Source: Firmicutes bacterium CAG:449 (GTDB lineage Bacteria; Bacillota_I; Bacilli_A; RFN20; CAG-449). Taken from it: 64,000 nucleotides of DNA. A program made the position numbers and the translations under genes. Positions 4,791 to 64,000 of the stretch are shown here, in pieces (positions within the stretch are counted from its first letter, which is position 1; each line of letters begins with the position of its first letter). The notes below the pieces were generated by a model, which was not told the origin of the DNA, made no database searches, and was given only the letters and a program-made list of their open reading frames with translations. The stretch is from positions 20,182-84,181 of the forward strand of contig FR889447.1 in the NCBI GenBank assembly GCA_000432895.1. The letters are read 5' to 3'.

Positions 4791-5912
4791 TTAATAATAA
4801 GATCTTACTGGAGTAACAATTTGAACAATTGATTCATCATCTAATGAAGATACTTTAAATGCTGACATTTCACCAACAAATGATAAAACAACATCTTCAC
4901 TTTGAGCAGCTTTAATTGCATCTATAACATAATTAACATTAAAGGAAATTTCAAATCTATCACCTGTATATCTAAAATCTTCAATTGTTTCAATAGCTGA
5001 TCCAATTTGTTCAGATTTAGAAGAGATTTCTAATTTATCACTAGAAACTGCTAATTTAACAATATTTTCTCTTTCAATAGCAAGTAAAGAAACTCTTTCC
5101 ATAGCAGCGACAAAATTATTTGAATTAACTTGTAAAACATAAGGATAGTTTGAAGGGAACATATTAGAAATTTTTGGGAAATCTCCAGAAATTAATCTTG
5201 AATAAATATTTGTATCTTTATAAGAGAAAACAGCTTTAGTTTCTGAAATAGTCATGACAACTTCACCATCTTCAACTAATTTTGAAACTTCAATTAAAGT
5301 TTTTACAGGAATGTTTGCTAAGAAATGAACATCTTGATTGATGTAATATGTTTTCTTTGCTAAACGATAGCTATCTGTTGCAACAAATTCAATTTCATTA
5401 CCATTTCCTTTAGCGTTAATAGCTGTTAAAACTGGTCTAACTTCTTTAGTAGATGCTGCAAAAGCTGTTTGAGAAACAATTTTCTTTAAATCTTCTGCTA
5501 AGAAAACAATTTCTTCTCCTTGTTTTTCTAAATCTAAATCAGGATATTCGTATGCTCTAATAGAATTTAATTTGAACTCAGATTTATTATCAGAAATTCT
5601 AGCAATTACTTCATCAATAATTTCTAAAGTTACAATGTCTGATTCTAATTTCTTTACGATTTCAAGAAGGAATCTAGCAGAGATTAATGTTTCACCTTCT
5701 TCATAATCTGTAATTAAATTTTTTCCATTTTCTTCAATTGGACATGTTGAAGAAATAGTTAATTCTCCATTGCTACCTAAAACTTGTAATTCATTAGATT
5801 TCATGACAAGTTTGAAATTTAAATAAGCAGGTGTTGGTGACTTTGGAACAATCGCAATATTTACAATATTTAAGATTTTTAAGAAGCGTTGTCTATTGAT
5901 TGTAAGTTTCAT
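4791..5912 (-). CDS. dnaN: DNA polymerase III beta sliding clamp
   Basis: 373 aa with the three-domain clamp architecture (MKLTINRQRFLKIL...). Located immediately downstream of dnaA. Confidence 0.95.
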   Translation of the reverse strand: MKLTINRQRFLKILNIVNIAIVPKSPTPAYLNFKLVMKSNELQVLGSNGELTISSTCPIEENGKNLITDYEEGETLISARFLLEIVKKLESDIVTLEIIDEVIARISDNKSEFKLNSIRAYEYPDLDLEKQGEEIVFLAEDLKKIVSQTAFAASTKEVRPVLTAINAKGNGNEIEFVATDSYRLAKKTYYINQDVHFLANIPVKTLIEVSKLVEDGEVVMTISETKAVFSYKDTNIYSRLISGDFPKISNMFPSNYPYVLQVNSNNFVAAMERVSLLAIERENIVKLAVSSDKLEISSKSEQIGSAIETIEDFRYTGDRFEISFNVNYVIDAIKAAQSEDVVLSFVGEMSAFKVSSLDDESIVQIVTPVRSYY

Positions 5913-5970
5913 AATTTTTCTCCTTTTATATTTTTATTTTTATATATTTATATTTAATAATAATAAAGAA

Positions 5971-5988
5971 TGTGGATAATGTGGATAA
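5971..5988. promoter_or_regulatory. Two tandem consensus DnaA boxes (TGTGGATAA x2) in the dnaA-dnaN intergenic region
   Basis: The sequence tgtggataatgtggataag contains two perfect 9-mers in head-to-tail arrangement. Confidence 0.8.
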
Positions 5989-6052
5989 GTACTAATTACA
6001 TTCTTTTTTATCAAAAATATTATATCATATATATGCTCATAAAACTATTTAA

Positions 6053-7432
6053 TTAAGCTTTTTTTAAGGCTTTTTTGATATCATTTACTGCATTTGCAAG
6101 TTGCAAATTTGTCTTAATTTCTGTCCCCACTTTATCCACACCGGTAATAACAGTTGAATGGTCTCGATGGAAAATTTGGCCTATTTTTTTATAAGGTGAA
6201 TTTAATAACAATCGGCATTCATACATTGCAATTCTTCTTGCTAGAGCAATTTGAGCATTTCTAACTGGTGAAAGAATTTGATCTGTTGATAAATGATAAT
6301 AAGAAGCAACTTCATTAATAATATCTTCTTCAGTTATTACTCTTTTTTTATCAGATTTAGGAATCATGATGCTTAAAGCATCTTGAATATCACTAAGAGT
6401 CACTTTTTGGGAACTATTAATAGTGACAGTATGGAATAATAATCTATTTAAAGCTCCTTCAAGTTCACGAACATTTTTTGAAAAGGTTTCCGCTAAAAAC
6501 AAAAGACCATCTTCATCATAATTACTCAATTTTAGACCTCTTGCAATGATTTTTCTTTTTAAAATTTCTAAAGCTGTTTCAGTATCTGGATTTTTTATAG
6601 AAACACATAATCCCATTATAAATCTAGAAACAAGTCGTTCTTCTAATCCTTTTAAATCACGTGGATGTCTATCTGAAGTTAAAACAATTTGCTTTCCTTT
6701 ATTTACTAATTTAGTAAATATATTAAAAAATTGTTCACTAGTTTTTTCTTTATTTGATAAAAATTGAATATCATCAACAAGTAATAAATCTACTTTATCA
6801 AAATATGCATAGAAATTTTGTTGGTCTTGATAGCCTCTAACATAATTAACAAAGGCTTCTAGAAAAGTATCAGTAGAAATATACATGATATTTGCTTCAG
6901 GATGCTTCTCTTGATAATAATTTCCAATTGCATGTAGTAAATGAGTTTTTCCAAGCCCAGAATGAGAATAAATAAAAAGTGGATTATAAGTTAAAGAAGA
7001 ATCATCACTAACAATTAAAGCGGCAGTCAAAGCCTCTTTATTACATTCACCTTGCACAAAATTATCGAAAGTATATTTTTTATTTAATTGACAATTTGGA
7101 AATAAATTAAATTCTTTTTTTACAGATTCAATGTCTACTTGAGCAGGTTGAATTTCAGCAACTTCGTTTGCAAGAACAAAATTTAAAGTATATTTAGTTT
7201 CTGTAATGTCATTAATAGCGCTTTTTAAAAGTTCACAATGATCATTTGAGGAAAAATACGCCTTAACTAAAGGAGAAGGAGTTAAAATATCCATTTTATT
7301 ATTATCTAAATTAATAAGTTTTAAATCAGAATAAAAAATAGAAAAGGTATGTTGATCTTTTGAAAGATTTTTTTCAACATTGCTCAAAACTTTATTCCAA
7401 AGATTTTTTTGTTTGGTAATTGTTACTGGCAT
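6053..7432 (-). CDS. dnaA: Chromosomal replication initiator protein DnaA
   Basis: 459 aa. AAA+ Walker A GLGKTHLLHAIGN. Sensor and C-terminal DnaA-box-binding HTH domain. AGGAGG RBS. Confidence 0.97.
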   Translation of the reverse strand: MPVTITKQKNLWNKVLSNVEKNLSKDQHTFSIFYSDLKLINLDNNKMDILTPSPLVKAYFSSNDHCELLKSAINDITETKYTLNFVLANEVAEIQPAQVDIESVKKEFNLFPNCQLNKKYTFDNFVQGECNKEALTAALIVSDDSSLTYNPLFIYSHSGLGKTHLLHAIGNYYQEKHPEANIMYISTDTFLEAFVNYVRGYQDQQNFYAYFDKVDLLLVDDIQFLSNKEKTSEQFFNIFTKLVNKGKQIVLTSDRHPRDLKGLEERLVSRFIMGLCVSIKNPDTETALEILKRKIIARGLKLSNYDEDGLLFLAETFSKNVRELEGALNRLLFHTVTINSSQKVTLSDIQDALSIMIPKSDKKRVITEEDIINEVASYYHLSTDQILSPVRNAQIALARRIAMYECRLLLNSPYKKIGQIFHRDHSTVITGVDKVGTEIKTNLQLANAVNDIKKALKKA

Positions 7433-7974
7433 AGTTTTGCCTCCTGCATAGCATTAAAATAATAGCATAATTTTTTGTAAATGAAACAAATAAAAGTGGA
7501 AAAAATATTTATCCACAAAAAAAGATAAAAAAACAGCGAAAAAATAGGGATTTTTTTAGTTATCCACATTTTATAATGTTGATAAGTGGTGTTTATAACA
7601 AATGTGGATAAATTGATGTGGAAAATGTGGAAAATTTAAAACAAAAATTTAATAATTGTTTATAATTAATGCCTAAAAATAGGTATTTTATTAAATTTAT
7701 CCACAAAATAAAATCATTATTAACATCTTAATTTTTATGTGGAAAAAATGTTAAAAATTGAAAATAAAGCAAAAAATAAATTGAATAAAATTATTAAAAA
7801 ATTCATTTTTACATGTAAATACTATATTAATTAAAAAAATGCAAGTAAATTAATGAAAATTTATAATTTTTTTTGCTAAAAATTTTTTTATTTAAATTCC
7901 TGCTTTTCGTTGACTTATTATTTATATATATATATAATCATAACGTATGTTAGTATCTATCGGAGGTGTATCAA
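7433..7974. other. oriC region: DnaA-box cluster plus AT-rich unwinding region between dnaA and rpmH
   Basis: Consensus TTATCCACA/TGTGGATAA boxes at 7509-7517, 7560-7568, 7603-7611 and 7697-7705. Degenerate TGTGGAAAA boxes at 7617-7634 and 7738-7746. Extremely AT-rich 7740-7960, including a (TA)n tract at 7921-7938. Confidence 0.8.
7910..7938 (+). promoter_or_regulatory. Consensus sigma-A promoter of rpmH (-35 TTGACT, 17-nt spacer, -10 TATAAT)
   Basis: TTGACT at 7910-7915 and TATAAT at 7933-7938, with an exactly 17-nt spacer. About 36 nt upstream of the rpmH ATG. GGAGG RBS at 7962-7966. Confidence 0.65.
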
Positions 7975-8109
7975 ATGAAAAGAACGTATCAACCAAGTAA
8001 AAGAAAACACACATCCGTAAATGGTTTCCGTGCAAGAATGGCAACCCCAAACGGTCGTAAAGTGTTAGCAAGAAGAAGATTAAAAGGAAGAAAAGTCCTT
8101 TCTGCTTAA
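7975..8109 (+). CDS. rpmH: 50S ribosomal protein L34
   Basis: Translates to [44 protein letters not shown], the canonical L34 sequence. Not in the ORF track because it is short. Confidence 0.95.
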
Positions 8110-8126
8110 TTCTTAATTACTTATTA

Positions 8127-8156
8127 AACCACTAGGGGAATCTCTAGTGGTTTTTA
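8127..8156 (+). terminator. Intrinsic terminator / attenuator between rpmH and rnpA
   Basis: Stem AACCACTAG / CTAGTGGTT with an 8-nt loop, followed by TTTTT. Confidence 0.7.
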
Positions 8157-8171
8157 AAAAGTTGGAGAAAT

Positions 8172-8507
8172 ATGCTAAAAAAAGAAGAAAGAGTAAAATC
8201 TAAAGAAGACTTTCAATTAGTTATTTCTAAAAAAAATAAAAAGTTTTCTGATTATTTTATTATATATTCTTTAAAAAGAGAAGAATATAATTATCCTAGG
8301 TTTGGAATTTCTGCATCAAAAAAATTAGGTGATGCAGTTAAAAGAGTAAAGATACGTCGACAAGTTAGAGCGATGATACACCAAATAAAATCTAACTCTT
8401 ATGTAAAACCGAAAGATTATGTGATTATTGTAAGAAATAAATTCTTAAATAATAATTATGAAACTAATTTACAAGCTTTAAAAAAGTTGATTATGGAGGA
8501 CAACTGA
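8172..8507 (+). CDS. rnpA: Ribonuclease P protein component
   Basis: 111 aa basic protein. KLGDAVKRVKIRRQVRA RNR-like motif. Conserved rpmH-rnpA-yidC order. Confidence 0.9.
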   Translation: MLKKEERVKSKEDFQLVISKKNKKFSDYFIIYSLKREEYNYPRFGISASKKLGDAVKRVKIRRQVRAMIHQIKSNSYVKPKDYVIIVRNKFLNNNYETNLQALKKLIMEDN

Positions 8508-9880
8508 TGAAAAAAAATCTTTTCAAGGTTGGTTTATTATTCTTAGGAGCTTTAGTTTTAACTGGATGTACAAAATCATTCAGTACAGTTCAAGATAAAG
8601 CAAATATGATGATAGTATATGAGAATACTAAAGTCGATGATAAAACAACAATGGAAACAATAATATCAAGTGTTAAAGATAAAGGATATTATGTTCCAAG
8701 TGAAAATTATTTTAATTATGTTGAAGAAAAAATAGTAGACAATGTTAAAACAAATTATGCTTCTGCGACATTAAATGGAATTGCTTATAGTGATATTAGT
8801 AAAGAAAGTTTATTAACTGCAGGTGAAACAAGAACTAATTTTGTTAAATCTAATGAATATGCAATAATAAAATATGCTAAAGAGAAAACTAATTCATTAG
8901 ATGATTTATGGTATAACTATGATTTATGGAGAAGTGAAGCTTTAAAAGATGGATTAACATTAGAAGATGTTGGTTCAAATTATTTCTTTAATGAAATGAA
9001 AACTTCATTTAATAATTATGCAAATACAATTACTGCAACTATTACACCAGTTGATGGAGTATTTGATGGATTAAAATTACAAGGTAAAGGATGGGGTTAT
9101 ACATTTACTAATGTAGGTCTTATAGAAGGTTTACTTGTTTGGCCAATTGCTGCTCTATTATATTATTTTGCAATGGCATTTTCTTCTTTAGGAGTTGGTG
9201 GTATTGTCTTATCTATTCTTCTTGTTACTATTATTGTTAGAGGACTATTATTGTTATTGACATTTAAACAAACTGCTTCTCAACAAAAAATAACTGCTTT
9301 ACAACCACAAATTGCAAAACTTCAAGAAAAGTATCCTCACGCTGATACAAATCAATATGAAAAGCAAGCAATGGCACAAGAACAAATGGAACTATATAAA
9401 AAGAATAATGTAAATCCATTTAGTATGTTTATTGTTTTATTAGTCCAATTTCCTGTATTTATTGCTGTTTGGGGAGCTATGTCAGGTTCGGCAGTTTTAA
9501 GAGAAGGGGAACTTTGGGGATTAAGATTATCCGCAAATACCGGAAGTTCAATTATTCATTGGACTGGAACACCTTCTGTTGTTGCATTAGTAATTTTTAT
9601 TATAATGGCTATTGCTCAAGCTGTTAGTATGTTATTACCTCAATTTATACAAAAAAAGAAAACTGAAAAAGTGGCAAAATTAAATAAAAATCCTACTGCA
9701 GCAAAAACAAATAATCAAATGATGATTATGAATATTGTAATGTTAGTGATGATTATTTTCACAGGTACTCAATTACCAGTTGCTATGTCAATTTATTGGA
9801 TTATTACTGCATTAATTTCACTTGTTCAATCGCTTGTTATGGCACATATTACAAATAGAAAAGCAAAAAATTATAAATAG
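8507..9880 (+). CDS. yidC: Membrane protein insertase YidC/Oxa1 with N-terminal lipoprotein domain
   Basis: 457 aa. Lipobox LTGC. About 200-aa extracytoplasmic N-domain followed by the 5-TM YidC core (PQIAKLQEKY..., NPFSMFIVLLVQFPVFIAVW). Basic C-tail. Confidence 0.9.
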   Translation: MKKNLFKVGLLFLGALVLTGCTKSFSTVQDKANMMIVYENTKVDDKTTMETIISSVKDKGYYVPSENYFNYVEEKIVDNVKTNYASATLNGIAYSDISKESLLTAGETRTNFVKSNEYAIIKYAKEKTNSLDDLWYNYDLWRSEALKDGLTLEDVGSNYFFNEMKTSFNNYANTITATITPVDGVFDGLKLQGKGWGYTFTNVGLIEGLLVWPIAALLYYFAMAFSSLGVGGIVLSILLVTIIVRGLLLLLTFKQTASQQKITALQPQIAKLQEKYPHADTNQYEKQAMAQEQMELYKKNNVNPFSMFIVLLVQFPVFIAVWGAMSGSAVLREGELWGLRLSANTGSSIIHWTGTPSVVALVIFIIMAIAQAVSMLLPQFIQKKKTEKVAKLNKNPTAAKTNNQMMIMNIVMLVMIIFTGTQLPVAMSIYWIITALISLVQSLVMAHITNRKAKNYK

Positions 9881-11842: not shown

Positions 11843-14256
11843 ATGGAGGATAATATGAAAAAAAGCATAAAAGTATTAAGTGGACTTTTACTTATGACAA
11901 CTTTGTTTTCATGTGGAAATGAAAATAGTAGTTCCAATCTAATTAATACAAGTTCATTTAATACAAGTAAAACTACAAGTGAAAAACAATCTATATATGG
12001 ATTAACTTTTATTGTTGGTACAGAAAAGAAAGAAACTTATAATAAAGAAATTGATTTAAATTCTATTGATAATGATATTATAAGATTAAAAGTAACTAAA
12101 GATGATGAAGAAGTAAATAATGAAGAAATAATTTATTCTGTTGATGGTGATCAAAATACTATTAAGTCAATAGATTTATCTACTAATTCTAATCATAATT
12201 ATGCAACAGTTAATTTTAATGGTGTGGGAAATGTAACTATTACGTTTAGTCTTGCATTACATAATGAAGTTAGCAGTGTTTCAGTTACTTATAATGTTAC
12301 ACAAGGATTTTTAAATAAAACTATTATGCGTGGTGATATCAAAGAAGAGAATGGTGTAATTATTATTCCAAGTAAAGTTCAAGCTACCGCGGTTGCTGCT
12401 AAAGCTGATACAAAATGGGTGTTGTCTGCGATAATGGAAGTTCCTTTATATTCATCAAGTGAATCATTTGGTATGGAAGTGAATCATTTGGTATGGGGTC
12501 ATTTATTGATGAAGGAAATATTGCTTTTTGGTCTGCTTTAAGAAATTCTAATAAAACAAAAGATGGAAAGTATGACATCTATGTTCGTGATTTTTTCTCA
12601 GGATGGGATACTCCTTCTTATGACAAGGAAGCTTGTTTAGAATATAAAAATCTTGATTTTCCTCTTGAAAATGAAAAAACTATTGTTGATTTTAAATTAA
12701 TTAGAAATGGATTAAATTATTATTTTGAAATTAATGGTTATCATTATCAATATGAATCAAAAGAAGAAAAACCAACATATCCAGGCTTTTTCTCACAAAA
12801 TCAAAGTGCAGAAATTAAAAATTATCAAGTAAATTATGATCAAAAATGTGTTGATGAAGCTATTGAAAAAGAATGGAATGATAATTCTAAATTAGATATT
12901 TTAAAATTTTTAGAAAAAGATTCCACTTCAATAAAAGCAGGTGAAAGTAGAAGTTTTAATGTTGTTAAGGCTCCTGAATATGCAAAAGAAAATTATGTCT
13001 TTGATGTTAATGAAGAATATAAAGATTTTGTTGTAATTGAAAATAATTTAATAAAAGTTAATGAAAATGCTCCTGAAGGATTATTAGAAGTAACTTTATC
13101 TTCTGAAAGTAAAAAAATTACAGATAAATATTCTATTCAAATTACAAAAGATGTGCAAATTACAGAAAATGATTATATTTTAGCAACAGGTGGATCATAT
13201 TTATCTTCTTCAAATAGTATAGTTTTTCCAGAAGCTTTATTTGAAAATAATGGTATTGGTAATGAAACAAAATATGATTCTTCACCAACATATGGAGCAA
13301 TCTTAAAACAAAAAGTATATGGATGTTCATTTACTTTAGAATTTGATGTTAATAATTATAATGGACATGGACAAGAAAAGAATAATTTATTAATTTCTTT
13401 AGGTGGTAGATTTAATCAATATTATTTTTCTTTTGGTAATGGGGTTGCAAATGTAAATGTATATACTCAATCTTTAAAACAAAATAGAACTAACGAAGGA
13501 TCAAATATTATTGCAAATCAATTAAGTGGTTTAGATGGAAATAATCATCATGTTAGAATTCATTCAAATGAAGGAACTATTGAAATAACAATTGATAATA
13601 AAAAAGTAGTATTTTCTGAAGCAGTTCCATTAATGAATTTATCTTCTTTCTTCATGGAGTTACCTGTTAGAATAGCAACTAATAATGCATCCTGTGAAAT
13701 AAATAATATTGTTACTACTAAAGGAGAAATATCAAATAAAAATGTTTACTCTCACAATTCTAATTATGCATATCAGCAAGATGGTAAGTATGTTATTTCA
13801 ATGCTTACAAATAATGGATGGGATTATCGAGATAGATTAGATTTAAATGCTTGTACTTTTAAAGAATTTGGTAAATGCCAAGGAGCTTACATTGCAAAAT
13901 TTAAAGCAACTTTAGAAGGGGCTGGATCTAGTTCAAAATTATGCATAAGAATAGGAGATGAACAAGAACAAGAGGCACAAATTTGTTTTGGCGAAAATAA
14001 AATTGAAAATGGTAGTTTTAAAAATTCGTCATCAATTAATATTTCAAAAAATGATACTGTTTATGTAACAATTTATAGAAATAACAATGGTAAAGCTAAT
14101 ATTGGTGTTGCAAAAAATGAAAATGATGAACCAACATATATTGCTAAAGAATTTGAAAATGTTTCTGATAATGGAATATGGTTATGGGCAAGAAATTCTA
14201 AAAATGAAACAACTAAAAAAGTGTATATTGAAAATATTGTGGTGGAAAATTTATGA
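11843..14256 (+). pseudogene. Large surface lipoprotein gene (about 805 aa, Big_2-like plus jelly-roll-like domains) split into two ORFs by a 20-bp tandem duplication (11843..12541 and 12493..14256)
   Basis: Lipobox LFSC-GN at the N-terminus (probable start ATG 11855 after GGAGG). ORF1 reads ...SSESFGME then runs into an out-of-frame tail. ORF2 in the +2 frame reads SESFGMGSFIDEGNIAFW.... The duplicated 20-mer GTGAATCATTTGGTATGG(AA/GG) sits exactly at the junction. Removing one copy restores a single ORF. Confidence 0.6.
12459..12498 (+). repeat. Perfect-but-2 tandem duplication of a 20-bp unit (gtgaatcatttggtatggaa / gtgaatcatttggtatgggg)
   Basis: Direct reading: copies at 12459-12478 and 12479-12498. 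20 bp is not a multiple of 3, so the duplication causes a +2 frameshift. Confidence 0.9.
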
Positions 14257-18730: not shown

Positions 18731-19161
18731 AGATAATGATTATCAATGGACCAAATATTAATATGCTTGGTATTCGAGAAACAAATTTATATGGAATTAC
18801 TTTTTATCATGATTTAGAAAAGAAAATAAAAATCTGGGCTAAAGAAAATAATCTTAAAGTTGAAATTCATCAATCCAATTATGAAGGAAAAATCATTGAT
18901 TTAATACAAAAGGCTTATTTTAAAAAATTTAATGGTATAATATTAAATGCTGGGGGTTATACACATACCTCAATTTCAATTTTAGATGCCTTAAAATCAA
19001 CAAATATTCCTTGTATAGAGGTTCATTTAACTGATATAGAAAAAAGGGAAGAATATAGAAAGCGTTCATATATTTCTGAATATGCATTTAAGGTTATCAA
19101 AGGTCTTGGTATAGAAGGTTATCACCAAGCGTTAGTTAGTTTTAAGGAGAATGAAATATGA
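18727..19161 (+). CDS. aroQ: 3-dehydroquinate dehydratase, type II
   Basis: 144 aa. MKIMIINGPNINMLGIRE and HLTDIEKRE signature. Confidence 0.9.
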   Translation: MKIMIINGPNINMLGIRETNLYGITFYHDLEKKIKIWAKENNLKVEIHQSNYEGKIIDLIQKAYFKKFNGIILNAGGYTHTSISILDALKSTNIPCIEVHLTDIEKREEYRKRSYISEYAFKVIKGLGIEGYHQALVSFKENEI

Positions 19162-55608: not shown

Positions 55609-57861
55609 TTATTCTACAACTAATGGATGTTTTTTATTGTAAAAGTGAATACCAACGATAACTAATGCGATAACTGCAGCAAAGATAAATACTGTCCACC
55701 ACCATGAACCGATTACATAAATCATGCTAGAAACAATATATGATGTTCCAAGCCAAAATAAGATTGTTGTTAAGAATTTCTTTTTAGGTAATTCAGCTTT
55801 TGCTGTTGCACACGCTGCAAAGCAAGGAATAGTGGTCATATTGAATGCAATGAAAGAAATTAAAGCTGGAATTGTAATGCCAGTTCCTTGAATCATTGCA
55901 ACTGCTGCTGCAACATCTCCACCATCGACTTCAACATCAATAGAAGCACCGATAATACAAGCTGCAAGAGCACCGAATGTAGCAATAACATTTTCTTTGG
56001 CAATAAGACCTGTTAATGCTGCAACAACGAATACCCAACCAAATGTTTTTAATTGTGAACCAAAGCCAAGTGGTGTGAATAATGGTTGCAAGAATTTTCC
56101 TATACCGGCAAGTATAGATTGATCTATTTGTTCATCTTCAAGGAAATTAAATGTCCATGTGAAGTGAGATAGAACCCAAATTAAGATTGTGGAAGCAAGA
56201 ATAATTGTAAATGCTTTCTTAATAAAGTGTTTTGTTTTGTCCCATAGGTGAATCATTAATGATTTAAATTGAGGTGCATGGTAACTTGGAAGTTCCATAA
56301 TAAATGGTGGGACATCTCCACGCATTGTTGTATTTCTCATTAAGATAATAGTAACAATTGCTGTTACCATACCAAGTAAGTACATTGAATATGTAATTAA
56401 GTCAGCATTTCCTACATTGAAGAATTCAACAATACCACCAGCAATAGCGGTTAATATTGGTAATTTTGCTCCACATGAGAAGAAAGGAATAACTCTAATA
56501 GTAGCTGTTCTTTCATTATCATCAGCAAGAGTTCGAGTATTAATCATAGCAGGGACTGAACATCCAAAGCCCATAATCATTGGCATAAATGCTCGACCTG
56601 ATAAACCAAATTTTCTAAAGATACGATCAAGAATAAAAGCAACACGAGCCATATATCCAGAATCTTCAAGAATTGAGAAGAATAAGAATAAAACTAATAT
56701 TTGAGGTAAGAATCCTAAGACAGCAAATAATCCACCTAAAACACCATCACAAATAAAACCAGTGACCCAAACAGCGTTACCTTCACTAGGTAACCAACCT
56801 CTTACTACATCAGTAAACCATCCTGTAATAGAATTTAAAAGGTTAGCTAAGATTACTCCAGGTGAATTGATTCCAGCATCAGTGTAAAATAATCCTTCGA
56901 ATACTGTGCCACTAAAGCATGGCTCAACATCTGAGAAAAGTCCACCTAAGAAGAATAAATTTTCTGAGAATGTTAAATGGAATATAATAAATAAGATTAA
57001 TAAGAAGATAGGAATACCAGCCCATTTATTAGTTAATACTTTATCAATTTTGTCTGATTTAGTTAAAACTTCTTTTTCTTTTGTTTTAGTTAAAACTGAT
57101 GAGAAATTTTTTGAAATATATTTATATCTTTCATCAGCAACAATTGCTTCAAAATCTTTTCCAAAAGTATCATCAGAGAATGTATTTTTAAATTCTTCAA
57201 CCATTGGTAATAAATCTTGGTGTGCTTTTGTTTCTAATTCATCGAGTTCTACAAGTTTTACTGCATGAAAAAGTGAATTTTCGATATGTTGTCCTTTAAA
57301 AGCAATTTTAACATCGTTGATTAAATGAGCTAATTTGCTATCTTTTAAGACAGTTGTACCTTCTCTATAACCATGCTTAGAAGCAAGATAAGCAACTTCC
57401 ATTAATTTATTAATACCTTCTTCTTTTAAAGCGGATATTTCTACAACTGGAAGGCCAATTCTTTTTTCTAATTCTTTAGCGTTAATTGCTTCGCCTCTAT
57501 TTTTTACTTCATCCATCATGTTTAATGCGATAACCATAGGGACATCAATTTCCATTAATTGAGTAGTTAAATAAAGATTTCTTTCAAGGTTAGTTGCATC
57601 AACGATATTGATAATACAATTTGGTTTTTCATCAAGAATAAAGTTTCTTGAAATTACTTCTTCAGGAGTATATGGTGATAAAGAATAAATACCAGGTAAA
57701 TCAACAATGCTAATATGTTCTTCTAATTTTTTGTATGTACCTTCTCTTTTATCAACTGTAACTCCAGGCCAGTTACCAACATGAGCTGTTGAACCTGTTA
57801 AAGCGTTAAATAATGTGGTTTTACCACAGTTAGGATTACCTGCAAGTGCAAACTTTTTCAT
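55609..57861 (-). CDS. feoB: Ferrous iron transporter FeoB
   Basis: G-domain ALAGNPNCGKTTLFNALTG plus polytopic permease domain. Start set at MKKF, which has an AGGAGG RBS, rather than the upstream in-frame ATG. Confidence 0.9.
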   Translation of the reverse strand: MKKFALAGNPNCGKTTLFNALTGSTAHVGNWPGVTVDKREGTYKKLEEHISIVDLPGIYSLSPYTPEEVISRNFILDEKPNCIINIVDATNLERNLYLTTQLMEIDVPMVIALNMMDEVKNRGEAINAKELEKRIGLPVVEISALKEEGINKLMEVAYLASKHGYREGTTVLKDSKLAHLINDVKIAFKGQHIENSLFHAVKLVELDELETKAHQDLLPMVEEFKNTFSDDTFGKDFEAIVADERYKYISKNFSSVLTKTKEKEVLTKSDKIDKVLTNKWAGIPIFLLILFIIFHLTFSENLFFLGGLFSDVEPCFSGTVFEGLFYTDAGINSPGVILANLLNSITGWFTDVVRGWLPSEGNAVWVTGFICDGVLGGLFAVLGFLPQILVLFLFFSILEDSGYMARVAFILDRIFRKFGLSGRAFMPMIMGFGCSVPAMINTRTLADDNERTATIRVIPFFSCGAKLPILTAIAGGIVEFFNVGNADLITYSMYLLGMVTAIVTIILMRNTTMRGDVPPFIMELPSYHAPQFKSLMIHLWDKTKHFIKKAFTIILASTILIWVLSHFTWTFNFLEDEQIDQSILAGIGKFLQPLFTPLGFGSQLKTFGWVFVVAALTGLIAKENVIATFGALAACIIGASIDVEVDGGDVAAAVAMIQGTGITIPALISFIAFNMTTIPCFAACATAKAELPKKKFLTTILFWLGTSYIVSSMIYVIGSWWWTVFIFAAVIALVIVGIHFYNKKHPLVVE

Positions 57862-57862
57862 C

Positions 57863-58099
57863 TTAATCCTCCTTAACAAGCATTGTAACTAACTCTGCTT
57901 CTGTCTTTCTAAGTGTTAATTCGTATCCACGAATAGTAACTTCAATTGGATCACCTAGAGGAGCTTTTTTTCTTAAAATAACATCAGCGCCAGGAGTGAC
58001 ACCCATATCGAATAATCTTCTACGGACTCTTCCTTCCCCAATAACACTTTTAATTGTTCCTTTTTCTCCAACTAGAAATTCATTTAGTTTTTTCTCCAT
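57863..58099 (-). CDS. feoA: FeoA domain protein (copy 2)
   Basis: 78 aa from MEKKLNEFLVGEKGTIKSV...RRRLFDMGVTPGADV... SH3-like FeoA fold. Confidence 0.75.
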   Translation of the reverse strand: MEKKLNEFLVGEKGTIKSVIGEGRVRRRLFDMGVTPGADVILRKKAPLGDPIEVTIRGYELTLRKTEAELVTMLVKED

Positions 58100-58115
58100 A
58101 AAATTCCTTCTTTCT

Positions 58116-58328
58116 TTATGCAACAAGTATTTTTGTTGACAAATTACTATCAAGAGCTAAACGTCCATCTTTAACAATGCAAATGACATTTCCTCCTGAT
58201 TTGGATAAGACTTTAATTGTGGAATTAATAGTAATTCCTAAACTTTCAAGATGCTTTTTAGTTTTTTCATCTGCAAGAATTTTAACAACTTTTAAGTCTT
58301 GATCTAATGGTGCTAAAACGATTGGCAT
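58116..58328 (-). CDS. feoA: FeoA domain protein (copy 1)
   Basis: 70 aa. LKVVKILADEKTKKHLESLGITINSTIKVL...GNVICIVKDGRLAL. Confidence 0.7.
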   Translation of the reverse strand: MPIVLAPLDQDLKVVKILADEKTKKHLESLGITINSTIKVLSKSGGNVICIVKDGRLALDSNLSTKILVA

Positions 58329-58626
58329 AATAATTTCCTTTCAACACATAGTTAGCTTTATCTAACTTTAAGTTAATTATAACTAACTGTTTTAAGATAA
58401 TTCAATACTTTTCAATTATTTTTAATAAATAATAAATGTGAATAAATAATACATTTTATATAGTTATTAATATAAAATAAGTGATTATTTATGTAAAAAA
58501 TTAATTGAATATATAATAAATATATAAAAAAATAATATCAGTATTGAAAATATTAATTTTTTAAAAATTTTATTATCACATTTTTTTTCTTGAATATATA
58601 ATATTGATAAATATTCGAGGATTTTT

Positions 58627-61290
58627 ATGAAAAGAAATTTAATTTATATTACATCATGCTTAATTCTTTTTAATTTATTTGCTTGCTCATCTAATAATTC
58701 TTCTATAGATGATACAAGTAATACTAGTCAAACTAGTGAAACTTCTTTTCTAGAAGCAGTCAATGCGACAAAAGATAACTTCCAATTAGATACTTATTAT
58801 TATGAAGTAGATAATTTAAAATCTTATCTAAATCATTATCAACATAGTAATATTCGATACGATGGAAGTAAATCAATTTATTGGAAAAAATATGTAACTG
58901 CATATACTGAAGATAAAAATGAATTTGAAAAATTGTTAAATATTGATGATAATTATCAACAAATGGTTTTTTATCTTGAAGATGGAGTTCTTCAAGAAAG
59001 GTTAAAAAATGAAGAAGATGTTTGGAAACAATTTAATTATAAACCAACATTTAGTTTCGATGAAAAGATTACTGATTATATAATTGCTGATCATTACCAT
59101 GAACAAGATGGATTTTATTATTTAAATGATGAATATTTAGGAACTGAAGAATGTTCTAGATTAACTGGATATTATGGATCCTATTCTTATTTAAATCAAA
59201 TTTTTGATTATGTTTGTTTTTCTATCAAAGATGGAAAACTTGATGAATATAAGTTTAAAGTAAAGTTTACTAGTATGAAAACAACTACTTTTGATTATGA
59301 TGCGAATGTTGAATTAACAGGAAAATTTTCTAATATAGGAACAATTGATTTAAAAGTTCCAGCTTTACCTGTTTATCCAGAAGATTTACTTCCTGAACAA
59401 AAAGAATTAGAAGAAGCTAAAATAAAGACTGAAAAAAATTATACTTATAATGAAAAATATAGTATTACTGATGAAAATGGTGAAACAAAAACTTATGATT
59501 TTATTGAACAAGTCAATAATCGTTCATTTAGAAATTATATGTATTCAGAATTTGCAGGATGTTATGTGGATTCTTATACTTATGATGTAGTAAGTATTAG
59601 TTTCTCTGGTGGTGTCCACACCACGACATATGATACATCTTTATATTATTATGATGATCATACTGAATATTATTCTAATGATATGGATATTGAAGATGAT
59701 TCTGTTTCAAGTGTGGAAAGAATTGGAAGTAGCTTTGGTACAAAAATTTATACTTATAATGAAGAAGAAAAATATTATACTCCTAGATTAGAAAAACCAG
59801 AAAGATATAATCCTCGTAATGAAACATATCTAGATTATGCTTCTAAATCATTTATTCATGGTATTTATGGTGAATATACGACAAATGAAGGAGTTTCATA
59901 TCATTATGATTTTATTGATTTAAAGTTCTATTTAAATGATGAAGGAGTTTTTTCTAAAGCAAGTTATGAATATGATTTAACAATCACTGAAAAAGGTATT
60001 TCTAAAGTTTATAAATGCTCTGGAACTGGCTTGTTCTCTAATGTTGGTACAACTTCATTTGATATTCCAACTGATCCAAATAATGATATAGAACTAGATG
60101 AAAGACTACAAGGGTTATATGATTCAATGAATTTAACTAATTATTCATATGAGGAAACTTATTCTATTTATGATGATAGTGACAATAAATTAGAATTATA
60201 TGGAGTTGAAGGACAACCTGTTTATGATAATGTTTTAAAAGAAAAAGTAAATGGTAGAGATGTTTGTTTATCGCATTATGGATATGTTCCAAGAGTGGAT
60301 AATCAAGAAGAATATGATGTTGAGTTTGTTGATGAATATTATCATTATGGTGATTATAACTTAGTTAGATCATATAAATTACAAAATTATGAACAATTAT
60401 TCTTCAATTATGCAGGAACTTATAAATTTACTCCTTGCATTGAAGCATTAAAGAATTACTTAAAATATTTTAAATTTGTAAGAACAAGAACTATTAATAA
60501 TCAAGAAGCATATGTTTTCTCTTTACCAGAAGTGTATGCTAAAATGTATGGATCAAGTATTGTTAGTAGTGTTGATGAAAATTCTTATACAAAATTCAAT
60601 AGTTTAAATTTAACTATTATTGGTAATGAAATATATCAAATTTCTTATGATTATGATTATTATAATAAAACAGATTATATTGGTGTTTGTTCAGGCAAAA
60701 TTAAAATAAATGGTTTCGGTACTACAGAAGTCAATATTCCTAATTTTAATGAAAGCGATTATGAAGTAACTACTCTACAAGATTCAGTTAATTTATTAAA
60801 AGATTCTTCTTATAACTACAAAGATTCAGCAAAAATTTCTTATTTTTCTAATAGAACTATTGGAAATTATATAAATATTAATAATTCATTTAATGTTACT
60901 AGTGAGCAAGAAAATGAATATTATTTAAATGATAATAAGCAATTATGTTTAGATATGAATCTTAAAGATAAAGATTATACGTTTGCAGTTTTATCAAAAT
61001 TAGATATAGATATTTCCAAAATAGATCAAAGAAAATTTTATTGTGATAGTAATGGAACATTTGTTTTAAAAAGTGAATATAAAAATGAATTTTTTAAAGA
61101 GGTATTACCAATAGAAGAACAATTTGGTGAAGGTAATGTTCAACCTCAAAATATTTCTATTGATGCAAATGGAGCTATTTTACAAATTAATTTATCATAC
61201 ATTGTAAGATTTAAATTAGATGATGGAAGTTATGTAGTATTTTATATTACTCGTTCAATTTTAATTTCAAATTCACCAATTATTATGTAA
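58627..61290 (+). CDS. Large Tyr/Asp/Asn-rich surface lipoprotein (887 aa) with three tandem modules of about 230 aa each
   Basis: Lipobox LFAC-SS. Modules end in TGKFSNIGTIDLKVP (about 59.3 kb), GTGLFSNVGTTSFDIP (about 60.0 kb) and GKIKINGFGTTEVNIP (about 60.7 kb). Each is followed by NYTYNEKYSI-like segments. Confidence 0.6.
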   Translation: MKRNLIYITSCLILFNLFACSSNNSSIDDTSNTSQTSETSFLEAVNATKDNFQLDTYYYEVDNLKSYLNHYQHSNIRYDGSKSIYWKKYVTAYTEDKNEFEKLLNIDDNYQQMVFYLEDGVLQERLKNEEDVWKQFNYKPTFSFDEKITDYIIADHYHEQDGFYYLNDEYLGTEECSRLTGYYGSYSYLNQIFDYVCFSIKDGKLDEYKFKVKFTSMKTTTFDYDANVELTGKFSNIGTIDLKVPALPVYPEDLLPEQKELEEAKIKTEKNYTYNEKYSITDENGETKTYDFIEQVNNRSFRNYMYSEFAGCYVDSYTYDVVSISFSGGVHTTTYDTSLYYYDDHTEYYSNDMDIEDDSVSSVERIGSSFGTKIYTYNEEEKYYTPRLEKPERYNPRNETYLDYASKSFIHGIYGEYTTNEGVSYHYDFIDLKFYLNDEGVFSKASYEYDLTITEKGISKVYKCSGTGLFSNVGTTSFDIPTDPNNDIELDERLQGLYDSMNLTNYSYEETYSIYDDSDNKLELYGVEGQPVYDNVLKEKVNGRDVCLSHYGYVPRVDNQEEYDVEFVDEYYHYGDYNLVRSYKLQNYEQLFFNYAGTYKFTPCIEALKNYLKYFKFVRTRTINNQEAYVFSLPEVYAKMYGSSIVSSVDENSYTKFNSLNLTIIGNEIYQISYDYDYYNKTDYIGVCSGKIKINGFGTTEVNIPNFNESDYEVTTLQDSVNLLKDSSYNYKDSAKISYFSNRTIGNYININNSFNVTSEQENEYYLNDNKQLCLDMNLKDKDYTFAVLSKLDIDISKIDQRKFYCDSNGTFVLKSEYKNEFFKEVLPIEEQFGEGNVQPQNISIDANGAILQINLSYIVRFKLDDGSYVVFYITRSILISNSPIIM

Positions 61291-61309
61291 GAAAGGGGAT
61301 AATTAGATT

Positions 61310-63247
61310 ATGAAAATGAAAAAATTATTATTAACAACTTTACTTGCTTCAACTTTATTAGTTGGATGCAATTCTACACCTACTTCAAGTGAAGTAACTG
61401 AACAATATATGATTTATCAAAAAGCTGTTGAAGAAGGAAAGTTTACAGGTACTTATGAAGAATGGCTAGCTTCTATTAAAGGTGAAAAAGGCGACACTGG
61501 AGAAAAAGGCGATAAGGGGGATCCTGGAGAAAAAGGCGATAAGGGAGATCCTGGAGAAAAAGGTGATAAAGGAGATCCTGGAGAAAAAGGTGAAGATGGA
61601 AAAGATTCACCTCATTATGGTGAAAAACATACAGTCACTTTTAGTTTAAACGATGATGAATTTTTACCAGCAAATACCTCTACTACTTTAGAAGTTAATT
61701 ATGGAGATGTAATAAGTTTACCTATTCCTACTAAAGAAGGTTATACATTTGTTGGTTGGTTTACTGGCGATACTGTTAATGATGGACAATGGTTTAATCA
61801 TACAGCGGTTTTTGATGATATTACTTTATTTGCTAGATTTGCTTTAACTGAATATACTTTACCAACTAATGTAAAAGTTGTTTCAGGCGAAAAGGAAACA
61901 TATCATTATGGAGATGTTGTTACTTTGGAACCAGTTTTAAATGAAGGTGAAACTTTTAAAAAATTTACTTTTAGTTCTGTCTTTTTTAATCAAGGAGTGG
62001 AACAATTTACTTCCACATATTCTAGTAATTATCAATTAAAATATATTCTTGGTAAAAATACAAATTTACAAGTAGAAACTTTTGCTACTCCTACTTCCAC
62101 TGATGGAACAGAAGGAACTTATATTGGAGAATTAAAAAATGGCGATGAAATATTAGAATTTACTATTGTTCTTGATGGATTAGGCTCATATTGGTTTAAT
62201 GGTGATCGTTCTAGTATGGAAGTAAGTAATTTTGGTCATGTTGAAGATTGGGTAAGTGGAACAACAGAAAATTTATATTTTTCACCTTATATTGTTACAG
62301 GTAGTGAAACTGCTTTATATGATTCTTCAATTCATCTTAATGAAGAAATGCCTGATGGTAATCTTTATTCATATATTTTAGGTAAAGATGATCACGATGA
62401 TAAAGAAGTTTATTTATGGTTAGATGGTAATAAATATGAAGAAAGTACTTGTGATTATGCTGGCACATATTCTGATGCAACTGTAACAATTAAAATTAAT
62501 GAAGATGGAACAGGTACAATAACTGGGGATAGTTCTGTTAATGTTACTTCTTCAAAAAGAATAAGTGAAACCGTTATTGAATTAACTGATGAATATGGTG
62601 AAGTTTATAAACTTACTCTTCAAAGTGATGGAAAATATAAAATAAGATATGAGGATGAAACTCATTTATTAACATTTAAAGCTTATGTATTCCAATGGTT
62701 TGGAGTCTTTAAAGGAGTATATACTCCAGAAGAGGAAGAATGTGAAGTCAAATTAGTGGTTAATAAAGATAAAACTGCAGAAATTTATGTAAGTGGAATT
62801 AGTATAGGAACTTATGTAGTTAGTGAATATGACGATTCTTCACTTACTTTAATGGATGAATATAACGAAACAATAAAAGTCAGTTTACAACTAACAGGTT
62901 CTAATCAAGGAAAATATCGTTTACGTTTAGAAGATGGAACAGCTTATTTAACATTTACATCACTTGCAAATAATCCTTTAGAAGGTTTAACATTTACTGG
63001 AACATGTTCAGAAACTGAAGGAGAACATAAATTTGTTTTCAAAGAAGATTTTAAAGTAGATTATTATTGTGATGGTGCTCTTACATATGAAAATATGAAA
63101 GTAGATATTTCAAATTATCCTACTTCAATTGTTCTTATTGATGCTAATGATGAAGCAATTACATATACTTTAACTTTTACAAACGAAACAACTTTTACAG
63201 TTAACATGAAAGATGATTGTAGAAAAGTAACATATACTAAAAAATAA
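61310..63247 (+). CDS. Surface lipoprotein with collagen-like (Gly-X-Y)14 segment, Listeria-Bacteroides (Flg_new) repeat and three C-terminal repeats
   Basis: Lipobox LVGC-NS. GEKGDTGEKGDKGDPGEKGDKGDPGEKGDKGDPGEKGEDGKDS. Flg_new motif EGYTFVGWFTGDT. C-terminal repeats ...DEYGEVYKLTLQSDGKYKIRYEDETHLLTF and ...DEYNETIKVSLQLTGSNQGKYRLRLEDGTAYLTF. Confidence 0.65.
   Translation: MKMKKLLLTTLLASTLLVGCNSTPTSSEVTEQYMIYQKAVEEGKFTGTYEEWLASIKGEKGDTGEKGDKGDPGEKGDKGDPGEKGDKGDPGEKGEDGKDSPHYGEKHTVTFSLNDDEFLPANTSTTLEVNYGDVISLPIPTKEGYTFVGWFTGDTVNDGQWFNHTAVFDDITLFARFALTEYTLPTNVKVVSGEKETYHYGDVVTLEPVLNEGETFKKFTFSSVFFNQGVEQFTSTYSSNYQLKYILGKNTNLQVETFATPTSTDGTEGTYIGELKNGDEILEFTIVLDGLGSYWFNGDRSSMEVSNFGHVEDWVSGTTENLYFSPYIVTGSETALYDSSIHLNEEMPDGNLYSYILGKDDHDDKEVYLWLDGNKYEESTCDYAGTYSDATVTIKINEDGTGTITGDSSVNVTSSKRISETVIELTDEYGEVYKLTLQSDGKYKIRYEDETHLLTFKAYVFQWFGVFKGVYTPEEEECEVKLVVNKDKTAEIYVSGISIGTYVVSEYDDSSLTLMDEYNETIKVSLQLTGSNQGKYRLRLEDGTAYLTFTSLANNPLEGLTFTGTCSETEGEHKFVFKEDFKVDYYCDGALTYENMKVDISNYPTSIVLIDANDEAITYTLTFTNETTFTVNMKDDCRKVTYTKK
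61499..61579 (+). repeat. Three near-identical 27-bp tandem repeats (GGAGAAAAAGGCGATAAGGGGGATCCT) encoding GEKGDKGDP
   Basis: Copies at 61499-61525, 61526-61552 and 61553-61579 differ only at synonymous positions. Confidence 0.9.
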
Positions 63248-63273
63248 AAAAACTTTAGAAGTATAAAATTATT

Positions 63274-63326
63274 AGACATGGAAAGAAATCCTAAAATTAG
63301 GTATAAATTCCATGTCTTATTTTTTT
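63274..63326 (+). terminator. Intrinsic terminator of the collagen-like lipoprotein gene
   Basis: AGACATGGA ... TCCATGTCT with a 26-nt loop containing the mini-hairpin CCTAAAATTAGG, followed by T7. Confidence 0.7.
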
Positions 63327-63434
63327 AATAAAAATAGAAATGTAGTATTTTTTCTTATTTTAATGTGAAAAACTTTTATAAAAATAAATATTTTAATTGT
63401 ATTAACTTTATAAAGCAATTATATTTATTTTGTA

Positions 63435-63471
63435 GTTAGATTTGACTAACTTATAGTTAGTTATATCTAAC
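63435..63471 (+). promoter_or_regulatory. Two 16-bp palindromes GTTAG-N6-CTAAC spaced 21 bp apart (candidate operator) just upstream of an RBS
   Basis: GTTAGATTTGACTAAC at 63435-63450 and GTTAGTTATATCTAAC at 63456-63471. A candidate promoter TTGTAT-17-TATATT at 63397-63425 lies immediately upstream. Confidence 0.45.
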
Positions 63472-63487
63472 ATTAAGGAAATTATAT

Positions 63488-64000
63488 ATTAAAAAATTTA
63501 ATTTAATTTTAGGTTTATTGCTTTCTAGTGCTACTATTATTGGTTTATCTTCTTGTGGAGAAACAGTAAATAATGCAATTAAAGATTTTACTGTTCAAGA
63601 AGTTAATAATGTTAGTTATGGTGATGAAATCGATTTTTCTAAATTAGTAAGTATAGAAACTGACTCGGATGTAGCTTTTTTTAAAGTTAAACTTACTTCT
63701 TTAACTCCTTCTACTATTAGTATTGATTCTGAAAAATCTTCTATTGCTATTGTTATTGGTGTAGGAGAATGTTCAGTTAAAGTTAATGTGGGTAATTTAG
63801 AAAAAACTGTTAGTTTTACTAGTTATGCGACAGTAAGCTCTATTTCTGTTAAAAGAGTAACTACCACTTTAAAAGTTGGCGATAGTATAAATCTTGATGA
63901 ATATGTTGCAATTAAAGTTGCATCCCCTAAGGGAAGCCAAGGAGCTTATTTTGCAACTTCTAAAAATGAAGATGTTGCTTTAATTAGTCAAGATGGAAAA
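63488..64000 (+). CDS. Lipoprotein, partial (continues past window end), apparent ATT start codon
   Basis: An open frame from 63461 runs to the window end: (I)KKFNLILGLLLSSATIIGLSSCGETVNN..., a classic lipoprotein signal. No ATG/GTG/TTG precedes the signal peptide. ATT at 63488 lies 7 nt after the RBS AAGGAA (63475-63480). Confidence 0.4.
   Translation, partial: MKKFNLILGLLLSSATIIGLSSCGETVNNAIKDFTVQEVNNVSYGDEIDFSKLVSIETDSDVAFFKVKLTSLTPSTISIDSEKSSIAIVIGVGECSVKVNVGNLEKTVSFTSYATVSSISVKRVTTTLKVGDSINLDEYVAIKVASPKGSQGAYFATSKNEDVALISQDGK

Follow-up and report, generated by a model that had tools for sequence, protein, structure and literature searches.

Organization of the lipoprotein/opp locus

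We analysed a 64,000-nt stretch of Firmicutes bacterium CAG:449 DNA (contig FR889447.1, positions 20,182 to 84,181; hereafter the window), near the right end of which two tandem palindromes of the form GTTAG-N6-CTAAC precede a lipoprotein gene that heads an operon for an Opp-type importer. The following features were read from this part of the sequence.

63274-63326, plus strand: intrinsic terminator that closes the upstream lipoprotein operon (genes 58627-63247), a hairpin AGACAUGGAA...UUCCAUGUCU followed by a U-run
63397-63425, plus strand: candidate sigma-70 promoter TTGTAT-17-TATATT (TTGTAT 63397-63402, TATATT 63420-63425)
63435-63450, no strand assigned: candidate operator palindrome 1, GTTAG-ATTTGA-CTAAC (GTTAGATTTGACTAAC), a perfect match to the pattern
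63456-63471, no strand assigned: candidate operator palindrome 2, GTTAG-TTATAT-CTAAC (GTTAGTTATATCTAAC), a perfect match to the pattern
63475-63480, plus strand: Shine-Dalgarno sequence AAGGAA, with a 7-nt gap to the start codon
63488-63490, plus strand: start-codon position, reading ATT here and ATG in all other strains
63488-64000, plus strand: 5' part of the gene for a 673-residue lipoprotein with lipobox LSSC and a weak Big_2 domain, running past the window end

The initial annotation of this DNA had described a good terminator, a candidate promoter, a tandem pair of palindromes and a lipoprotein signal without a usual start codon. The terminator proved to be real, with a folding free energy (dG) of -20.3 kcal/mol for the hairpin at 63274-63317 (z = -5.5), and none of 200 shuffled sequences folded as well. 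Both palindromes were present as described, with a start-to-start distance of 21 bp. Counted from the dyad, the arms span +-4 to +-8, and T stands at -7 and A at +7. Perfect copies of GTTAG-N6-CTAAC occurred three times in the window against 0.02 expected, and three or more were found in 0 of 100 shuffles, by which a chance origin of the palindromes was ruled out. The promoter has a more qualified standing: TTGTAT-17-TATATT is there, and its hexamers were identical in all 13 conspecific contigs compared below, with 2 spacer positions varying, but a simple sigma-70 consensus scan did not call it because its -35 box is weak (TTGTAT matches TTGACA at 3 of 6 positions), and it stays a candidate. 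The palindrome pair begins 9 nt past the candidate -10 box. An alternative promoter within the palindromes (TTGACT, 63443-63448) was rejected, as no usable -10 box was found at 16-18 nt.

The lipoprotein signal was likewise borne out: the protein begins with (M/I)KKFNLILGLLLSSATIIGLSS-C-G, in which a charged start, a hydrophobic core and the lipobox Cys were recognized by eye and not by a predictor. The full operon, which extends beyond the window end, was read in contigs L001 and L134. Following the palindromes, it encodes the 673-residue lipoprotein, an 896-residue SBP_bac_5 (family-5 solute-binding, OppA-like) lipoprotein, the permease-like OppB and OppC, the ATPase-like OppD and OppF, and a 606-residue M6-metalloprotease-like lipoprotein. 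The best NCBIfam matches for the transporter included minimal-mycoplasma Opp models, and relatives of the OppA-like protein carry the NCBI names 'Bacilli bacterium' or 'Erysipelotrichaceae bacterium'. It was also noticed that a run of N lies inside the OppA-like gene at about 15950-15990 of L001 (about 67260-67300 in window numbering), a sign of imperfect assembly close behind the palindromes and the lipoprotein start; L134 has the intact 896-residue protein.

A second palindrome pair on the feo promoter

The initial annotation had taken the palindromes for a candidate operator and had proposed a search for further copies. In the same DNA, such a pair with identical 21-bp spacing was found about 5 kb away, on the promoter of a ferrous-iron uptake operon.

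55609-58328, minus strand: feoA-feoA-feoB ferrous-iron uptake operon (feoA 58116-58328, feoA 57863-58099, feoB 57861 to about 55609)
58351-58366, no strand assigned: promoter-distal palindrome GTTAGCTTTATCTAAC, a perfect match, between the -10 box and the feoA ribosome-binding site
58372-58387, no strand assigned: promoter-proximal palindrome (minus strand GTTAGTTATAATTAAC), with 1 mismatch, containing the -10 box

The two FeoA products matched Pfam with E values of 4.7e-10 and 8.3e-20, and the 750-residue FeoB product contained the domains FeoB_N, FeoB_C and Gate. On the minus strand, the feo promoter consists of TTGAAT (58405-58400), an 18-nt spacer and TATAAT (58381-58376). When overlap with this metal-uptake promoter was tested, TATAAT was found inside the promoter-proximal palindrome, with the other palindrome following it; the mismatch in the proximal copy (TTAAC) yields a perfect -10 box. 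The promoter-distal palindrome ends 22 nt from the start codon of the first feoA and is directly followed by the ribosome-binding site. Both pairs, at feo and at opp, are intergenic and promoter-proximal. As a separate observation, feoB of the conspecific contig L130 is split into two open reading frames (ORFs) of 416 and 325 residues (7468-9720), owing either to an error of assembly or to a frameshift or stop of the strain itself.

Conservation among strains and related species

Thirteen conspecific contigs were compared, namely the window, L124-L133 and L134-L135, the others differing from the window by 0.4-2%. Variable positions were distributed unevenly over the opp palindromes, with 1 of 20 in the arms, 6 of 12 in the spacers, none of 5 in the linker and 7 of 98 in the flanks; the difference between arms and spacers was significant (Fisher p = 0.006). 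The arms of palindrome 1 were invariant around the spacers ATTTGA, ATTCGA, AATTGA and AATCAA, and those of palindrome 2 were conserved, save for CTAAT in L128 and L134, around TTATAT, TTGTAC, TTATGT and TTGTGT. The spacers (63440-63445 and 63461-63466) were hypervariable even relative to the flanks (6/12 versus 7/98, p = 0.0005).

The palindromes, which had been expected to recur upstream of orthologues if functional, were kept in 13 of 13 conspecific contigs and in part of the wider lineage. Three related species, with OppA 63-65% identical, possess an orthologous operon headed by a different lipoprotein, and a perfect site upstream of it was kept in two of them, L136 and L138. L136 retains a single palindrome, which lies 6 nt beyond the end of an extended -10 box, TGaTATACT, a geometry the same as that in the window. 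Because about 1e-4 perfect sites would be expected by chance in a few hundred bases (scaled from the window expectation), the sites in L136 and L138 indicate that the opp-type operon is targeted repeatedly, if not universally, in this lineage. In L138, a one-mismatch site (GTTAGTTATCAATAAC, 6739-6754) was also located, 48 nt upstream of the divergent nrdI flavodoxin gene and separated by 66 bp from the perfect site at the opp-type operon.

Association of the tandem motif with feoA and DtxR-family genes

Scanning of GTDB, one genome per species, with the pattern GTTAR-N6-YTAAC-N5-GTTAR-N6-YTAAC returned at least 119 loci, mainly from Lachnospiraceae, Oscillospiraceae, Erysipelotrichaceae, Christensenellales and spirochaetes, and the ORFs adjoining each motif (148 ORFs) were annotated. 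The counts of loci given in this section are those among the matches listed. The motif was flanked by 1) FeoA/FeoAB genes in 23 loci, 2) genes for proteins combining the two iron-dependent-repressor domains, PF01325 and PF02742, in 9 loci, 7 of which are divergent from feoA across the motif, and 3) genes for actinobacterial iron-type binding proteins in 3 loci. By tblastn against the 8-kb stretches fetched around the motif, a DtxR-like gene was detected in 16 of 119 loci, including the Erysipelotrichaceae locus L114, and a Fur-like gene in 0 of 119. Genomes carry DtxR-like genes at a density of one or two per few Mb; as a rough estimate, these genes are enriched several-ten-fold near the motif.

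The feoA loci share a common layout. Their promoter consensus is TTGACA-17-TAtaCT, with TTGACA 5-12 nt upstream of palindrome 1, the -10 box made of the end of the palindrome 1 spacer and the beginning of its right arm, and palindrome 2 just after that box. The feo promoter of the window has the same layout, which, as judged from sequence, is the classical arrangement of a promoter-occluding repressor. Besides feoA, the same tandem operator was seen before the enolase gene in five Lachnospiraceae loci (L003, L023, L049, L081 and L094, including Coprococcus hominis), in register with a TTGCAA-17-TATACT promoter; further recurrent neighbours encode DUF2325 (5 loci) and DUF3793 (4 loci). The regulon of the motif-linked DtxR subfamily thus seems to reach beyond iron uptake.

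The regulators adjoining the motif are small (about 120-170 residues) two-domain proteins, whose closest solved relatives are B. subtilis MntR (the top match being the D8M mutant, E = 1.6e-13), E. coli MntR, IdeR and DtxR. Alignment of nine of them revealed Met at the position of DtxR M10 in 5/9, Cys at the position of C102 in 7/9, and invariant Glu and His. A Met/Cys/Glu/His ligand set distinguishes the Fe(II)-sensing DtxR/IdeR from the Mn(II)-sensing MntR (PMC11672702). A profile search with the regulator family yielded at least 6,970 relatives at E <= 1e-8, many of them from gut-associated Bacillota and spirochaete assemblies, among which none could be tied to the present species. A literature search found no prior description of the tandem GTTAG-N6-CTAAC motif, which is no proof of novelty.

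Comparison with known metalloregulator systems

The motif-linked regulators have the same two-domain architecture and size (about 120-145 residues) as MntR of B. subtilis and E. coli, their closest solved relative. The positions read by the MntR recognition helix are known from a cryo-electron microscopy structure of MntR on DNA; its dimers read base pairs 4-7 of each half-site, T-7/A+7 being nearly invariant, and closely spaced multiple sites are used cooperatively, including paired sites over a promoter (PMC11882963). The arms in the window at +-4 to +-8 and their T-7/A+7 match these MntR-DNA contacts, and here too the sites form pairs over promoters. On the other hand, the periodicity is 21 bp here versus 19 bp for MntR (18-bp sites 1 bp apart), most of the regulators here have Met/Cys-type ligands in contrast to Asp/Glu in MntR, and the main target here is feoAB, not mntH or mntABC.

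GTTAG and CTAAC pentamers also occur within the classical 19-bp DtxR/IdeR iron box (TTAGGTTAGSCTAACCTAA), although they are 1 bp apart there and 6 bp apart here. This box was tried as the operator and discarded, the window containing no match at <=3 mismatches. DtxR/IdeR of Corynebacterium and Mycobacterium resemble the predicted regulator as Fe(II)-dependent repressors that control iron uptake and whose primary site is made of Met/Cys/Glu/His (PMC11672702), whereas their C-terminal SH3-like domain is absent from the motif-linked regulators. A Bacillus-type 7-1-7 Fur box (TGATAATNATTATCA) was rejected as well, none being present at <=2 mismatches in 58329-58626 or 63248-63487. In the window as a whole, Fur-box-like 7-1-7 matches numbered 13 versus 3.2 in shuffles (e.g., 58944-58958 and 18731-18745); they lie mostly inside genes, and the excess likely comes from the codon composition of an AT-rich genome.

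A further parallel is found in the archaeon Haloferax volcanii, in which TroR, a DtxR-family protein, is the primary iron regulator and binds a semi-palindrome with TTAGG/CCTAA-type arms; its sites are often tandem in iron-uptake promoters, where one copy, whichever it is, is enough for repression (PMC10783522). The likeness to the present case lies in the use of tandem semi-palindromes (TTAGG-type for TroR) at iron promoters; the differences are that the TroR motif is TTTAGGC-N3-CCTAAA, that its tandem copies are about 30 bp apart and that the promoters are archaeal.

A predicted double operator of a DtxR/MntR-family repressor

These data suggest that the tandem palindromes probably serve a metal-dependent repressor of the DtxR/MntR family as a double operator, one shared by feoA-feoA-feoB and the lipoprotein/opp operon. 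The operator proposed in the initial annotation is thereby strengthened by the second pair on the feo promoter, by conservation in strains and relatives, and by the link to the DtxR family from comparative genomics. Most likely, the repressor is an Fe(II)-sensing family member of small size with two domains, and its gene lies elsewhere in the genome. The sites, their conservation and their association across genomes with feoA and DtxR-family genes were observed directly, and from them we infer binding, the identity of the metal, cooperativity and the effect on expression at the predicted operators.

When metal is plentiful, one metallated dimer would occupy each 16-bp palindrome, the arms at +-4 to +-8 being placed where MntR recognition helices contact DNA. 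The 21-bp spacing corresponds to two helical turns and would bring both dimers onto one face of the DNA, making cooperative binding possible. At feo, the pair would cover the -10 box and the region of the transcription start and thereby occlude RNA polymerase; at the lipoprotein/opp operon, it would lie at about +3 to +40 and prevent either the binding of polymerase or its escape from the promoter. Under metal scarcity, the repressor would leave, and both Feo and the operon for the lipoprotein, the Opp-type importer and the M6-protease-like protein would be expressed.

Several points weigh against this proposal. No DtxR-family gene was found in the 64-kb window and about 20 kb of further conspecific DNA (about 85 kb in total), and the regulator in this organism is therefore deduced from other genomes only. 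The metal specificity is mixed, with Asp or Asn in place of Met in 4/9 regulators. At the lipoprotein operon, the sites do not cover the -10 box but lie downstream of the candidate promoter, which has a weak -35 box; the related species L137 has no site at its orthologous operon; and an Opp-type peptide importer is no obvious member of an iron regulon. Finally, the pentamer arms alone do not define the regulator family, because the pattern also catches sites of an Xre-type system.

The last point leads to the alternative that the sites are bound by a protein of another family, such as an Xre-type helix-turn-helix (HTH) protein, in which case the link to feoA would be regulatory but not mediated by the DtxR family. 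In its favour, about 14 loci among the matches listed have near-identical arms flanking genes for a 63-residue HTH_3 protein and a DUF2178 membrane protein, and the absence of a DtxR gene from the roughly 85 kb examined fits it too. However, those sites are 37-bp perfect palindromes upstream of their own Xre/DUF2178 genes and never beside feoA, and no Xre/DUF2178 pair exists in the window or in conspecific DNA. In Bacillota, moreover, the motif accompanies feoA (23 loci) and DtxR-like genes (16 loci) among the matches listed, and neither upstream region contains a Fur box or a classical IdeR box. We therefore regard binding by another family as unlikely.

The 37-bp palindromes of the Xre/DUF2178 system, e.g., GTTAAATATTTCTAAC-ACAAT-GTTAGAAATATTTAAC, are situated directly upstream of the gene for the 63-residue Xre-type HTH protein and/or the DUF2178 gene, in L004, L054, L055, L063, L086, L101, L104 and L116, as well as in L015, L019, L021, L037, L072 and L077, and the system was found in Bacteroidota, bacteria of the candidate phyla radiation (CPR) and archaea.

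Still less probable, indeed very unlikely, is the alternative that the palindromes at the lipoprotein operon, which would be transcribed given their place downstream of the candidate promoter, act as RNA, forming a long hairpin in the 5' untranslated region that affects stability or translation of the mRNA. The segment 63435-63471 does fold as a single hairpin (-17.2 kcal/mol, z = -3.9), and changes from T to C at 63443 and from A to G at 63463 co-occur in 6 conspecific contigs and would preserve a hairpin pair. But such pairing is open to any two palindromes whose arms agree, and linkage accounts for the joint changes, which lie 20 nt from each other in strains that are closely related; hairpin pairs are broken in L133 and L125. 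Co-variation was therefore rejected as proof of an RNA helix; the changes could have arisen by linkage or by quasi-palindrome templated mutation. In addition, palindrome 1 of the feoA promoters overlaps the -10 box and is untranscribed, yet its arms are equally conserved, and the related species L136 keeps only one palindrome. Repression through DNA by a DtxR/MntR-family protein thus remains the preferred explanation of the palindromes.

The ATT at the start codon of the lipoprotein gene

The lipoprotein frame opens after an in-frame TAG at 63458-63460 and has no ATG, GTG or TTG before TTG at 63518; ATT at 63488 is in frame with (I)KKFNLILGLLLSSATIIGLSSCG. In these respects the sequence agrees with the initial annotation, which had noted ATT at ideal spacing from AAGGAA and no usual start codon ahead of the signal peptide. 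Its further suggestion, a rare infC-type start implying autoregulation, was not supported by strain comparison, and the check for an ATG-to-ATT error that it had advised proved the right one. The codon was ATG in 12/12 other conspecific contigs: ten had been retrieved by an exact FeoA protein look-up, all of them called at 673 residues with an ATG start, and two more came from a metagenome pattern scan that allowed any base at the third codon position, both again with ATG. Around it, strain L133 reads AAGGAAT, a change at the base adjoining the Shine-Dalgarno sequence. The L138 orthologue (668 residues, 39% identity) also starts with Met. The ATT is best described as a private G-to-T change of an ATG start, either a real variant weakening translation or an assembly error, and, on the sequences compared, it is not a conserved infC-like device.

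A sequencing or assembly error, the true sequence being ATG, is a serious possibility, although short of a probable one. ATT is unique among the 13 contigs, and the scaffold, assembled from the short reads of an older metagenome, contains a run of N in the next gene. On the other side, this assembly has 17 private single-base differences in the 12.6 kb compared, that at 63490 among them, and such a number is typical of the other conspecific contigs (6-41). All five private differences in adhE and rex are synonymous, unlike random errors, which suggests that most private differences of this assembly, if not necessarily that at 63490, are real variants. If ATT is real, translation of the first gene would be cut to a few percent, AUU initiation in E. 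coli being about 1-2% of that at AUG (bioRxiv 10.1101/063800), or initiation may instead move to TTG at 63518, with loss of the charged start of the signal peptide.

That ATT is a genuine, selected non-canonical start for low expression or IF3-type translational control is hardly credible: it has the ideal spacing from a good Shine-Dalgarno sequence, the lack of another start ahead of the signal peptide and the variant-like, synonymous private differences in adhE/rex on its side, but against it are the 12/12 ATG contigs, the Met start of the L138 orthologue and those of the unrelated first-gene lipoproteins in related operons. The AUU starts of infC and pcnB in E. coli are similar in that AUU takes the start position and a good Shine-Dalgarno sequence precedes it; theirs, however, are conserved and used, whereas the ATT in the window is private to a single assembly and hence no conserved regulatory design. 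An apparent rare start codon that vanished on strain comparison calls for caution with oddities of single assemblies.

Other features of the window

The window belongs to a human-gut metagenome scaffold (ENA ERZ28621979, scaffold_49), has a GC content of 26%, uses the standard genetic code and encodes numerous lipoproteins. The regulators that it encodes are limited to an AraC-type protein and Rex; searches of the window and the conspecific flanks turned up no gene of the DtxR, Fur or Xre/DUF2178 kind. The upstream lipoprotein (61310-63247), whose operon ends at the terminator described above, has collagen-like GEKGDKGDP repeats and a Flg_new domain, and its length differs among strains (636, 645 or 657 residues), presumably through the number of repeats. 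A chromosomal origin region was identified at 4791-9880, where dnaN and dnaA on the minus strand are followed by two plus-strand genes, rnpA and one like yidC; at the same position of the origin region, the conspecific loci L121-L123 carry an annotated rpmH. Two overlapping ORFs, 11843-12541 and 12493-14256 (together 11843-14256), look like one frameshifted lipoprotein gene.

Implications for the organism and the regulator family

If the various lines are joined into a single picture, which we offer as speculation and which is rather unlikely to hold in all its parts, a two-domain Fe(II)-type DtxR protein would couple Feo to the lipoprotein/Opp/M6-protease-like operon in an uncultured low-GC gut member of the Bacilli with mycoplasma-like Opp proteins. 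The opp operon would then be induced by iron starvation and may serve the uptake of iron, haem or a metal chelate, or the harvest of host metalloproteins, and not ordinary peptide transport. The same picture would assign the role of main iron sensor in many gut Clostridia and Erysipelotrichia to an unnamed regulator subfamily with a 5-6-5 tandem box, which would also control enolase, DUF2325 and DUF3793 genes, and would see in the ATT allele a natural knock-down of an exposed lipoprotein in one strain.

At the level of the family, pairs of GTTAG-N6-CTAAC 21 bp apart provide a concrete and testable candidate operator for a very large subfamily of small DtxR-type proteins that carries generic annotation. 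For the organism, an uncultured low-GC gut bacterium, they provide a first sketch of a regulon, predicted to comprise Feo and an Opp-type importer operon. The unexpected element in it is that an Opp-type importer with protease-like lipoproteins would belong to the same regulon as Feo.

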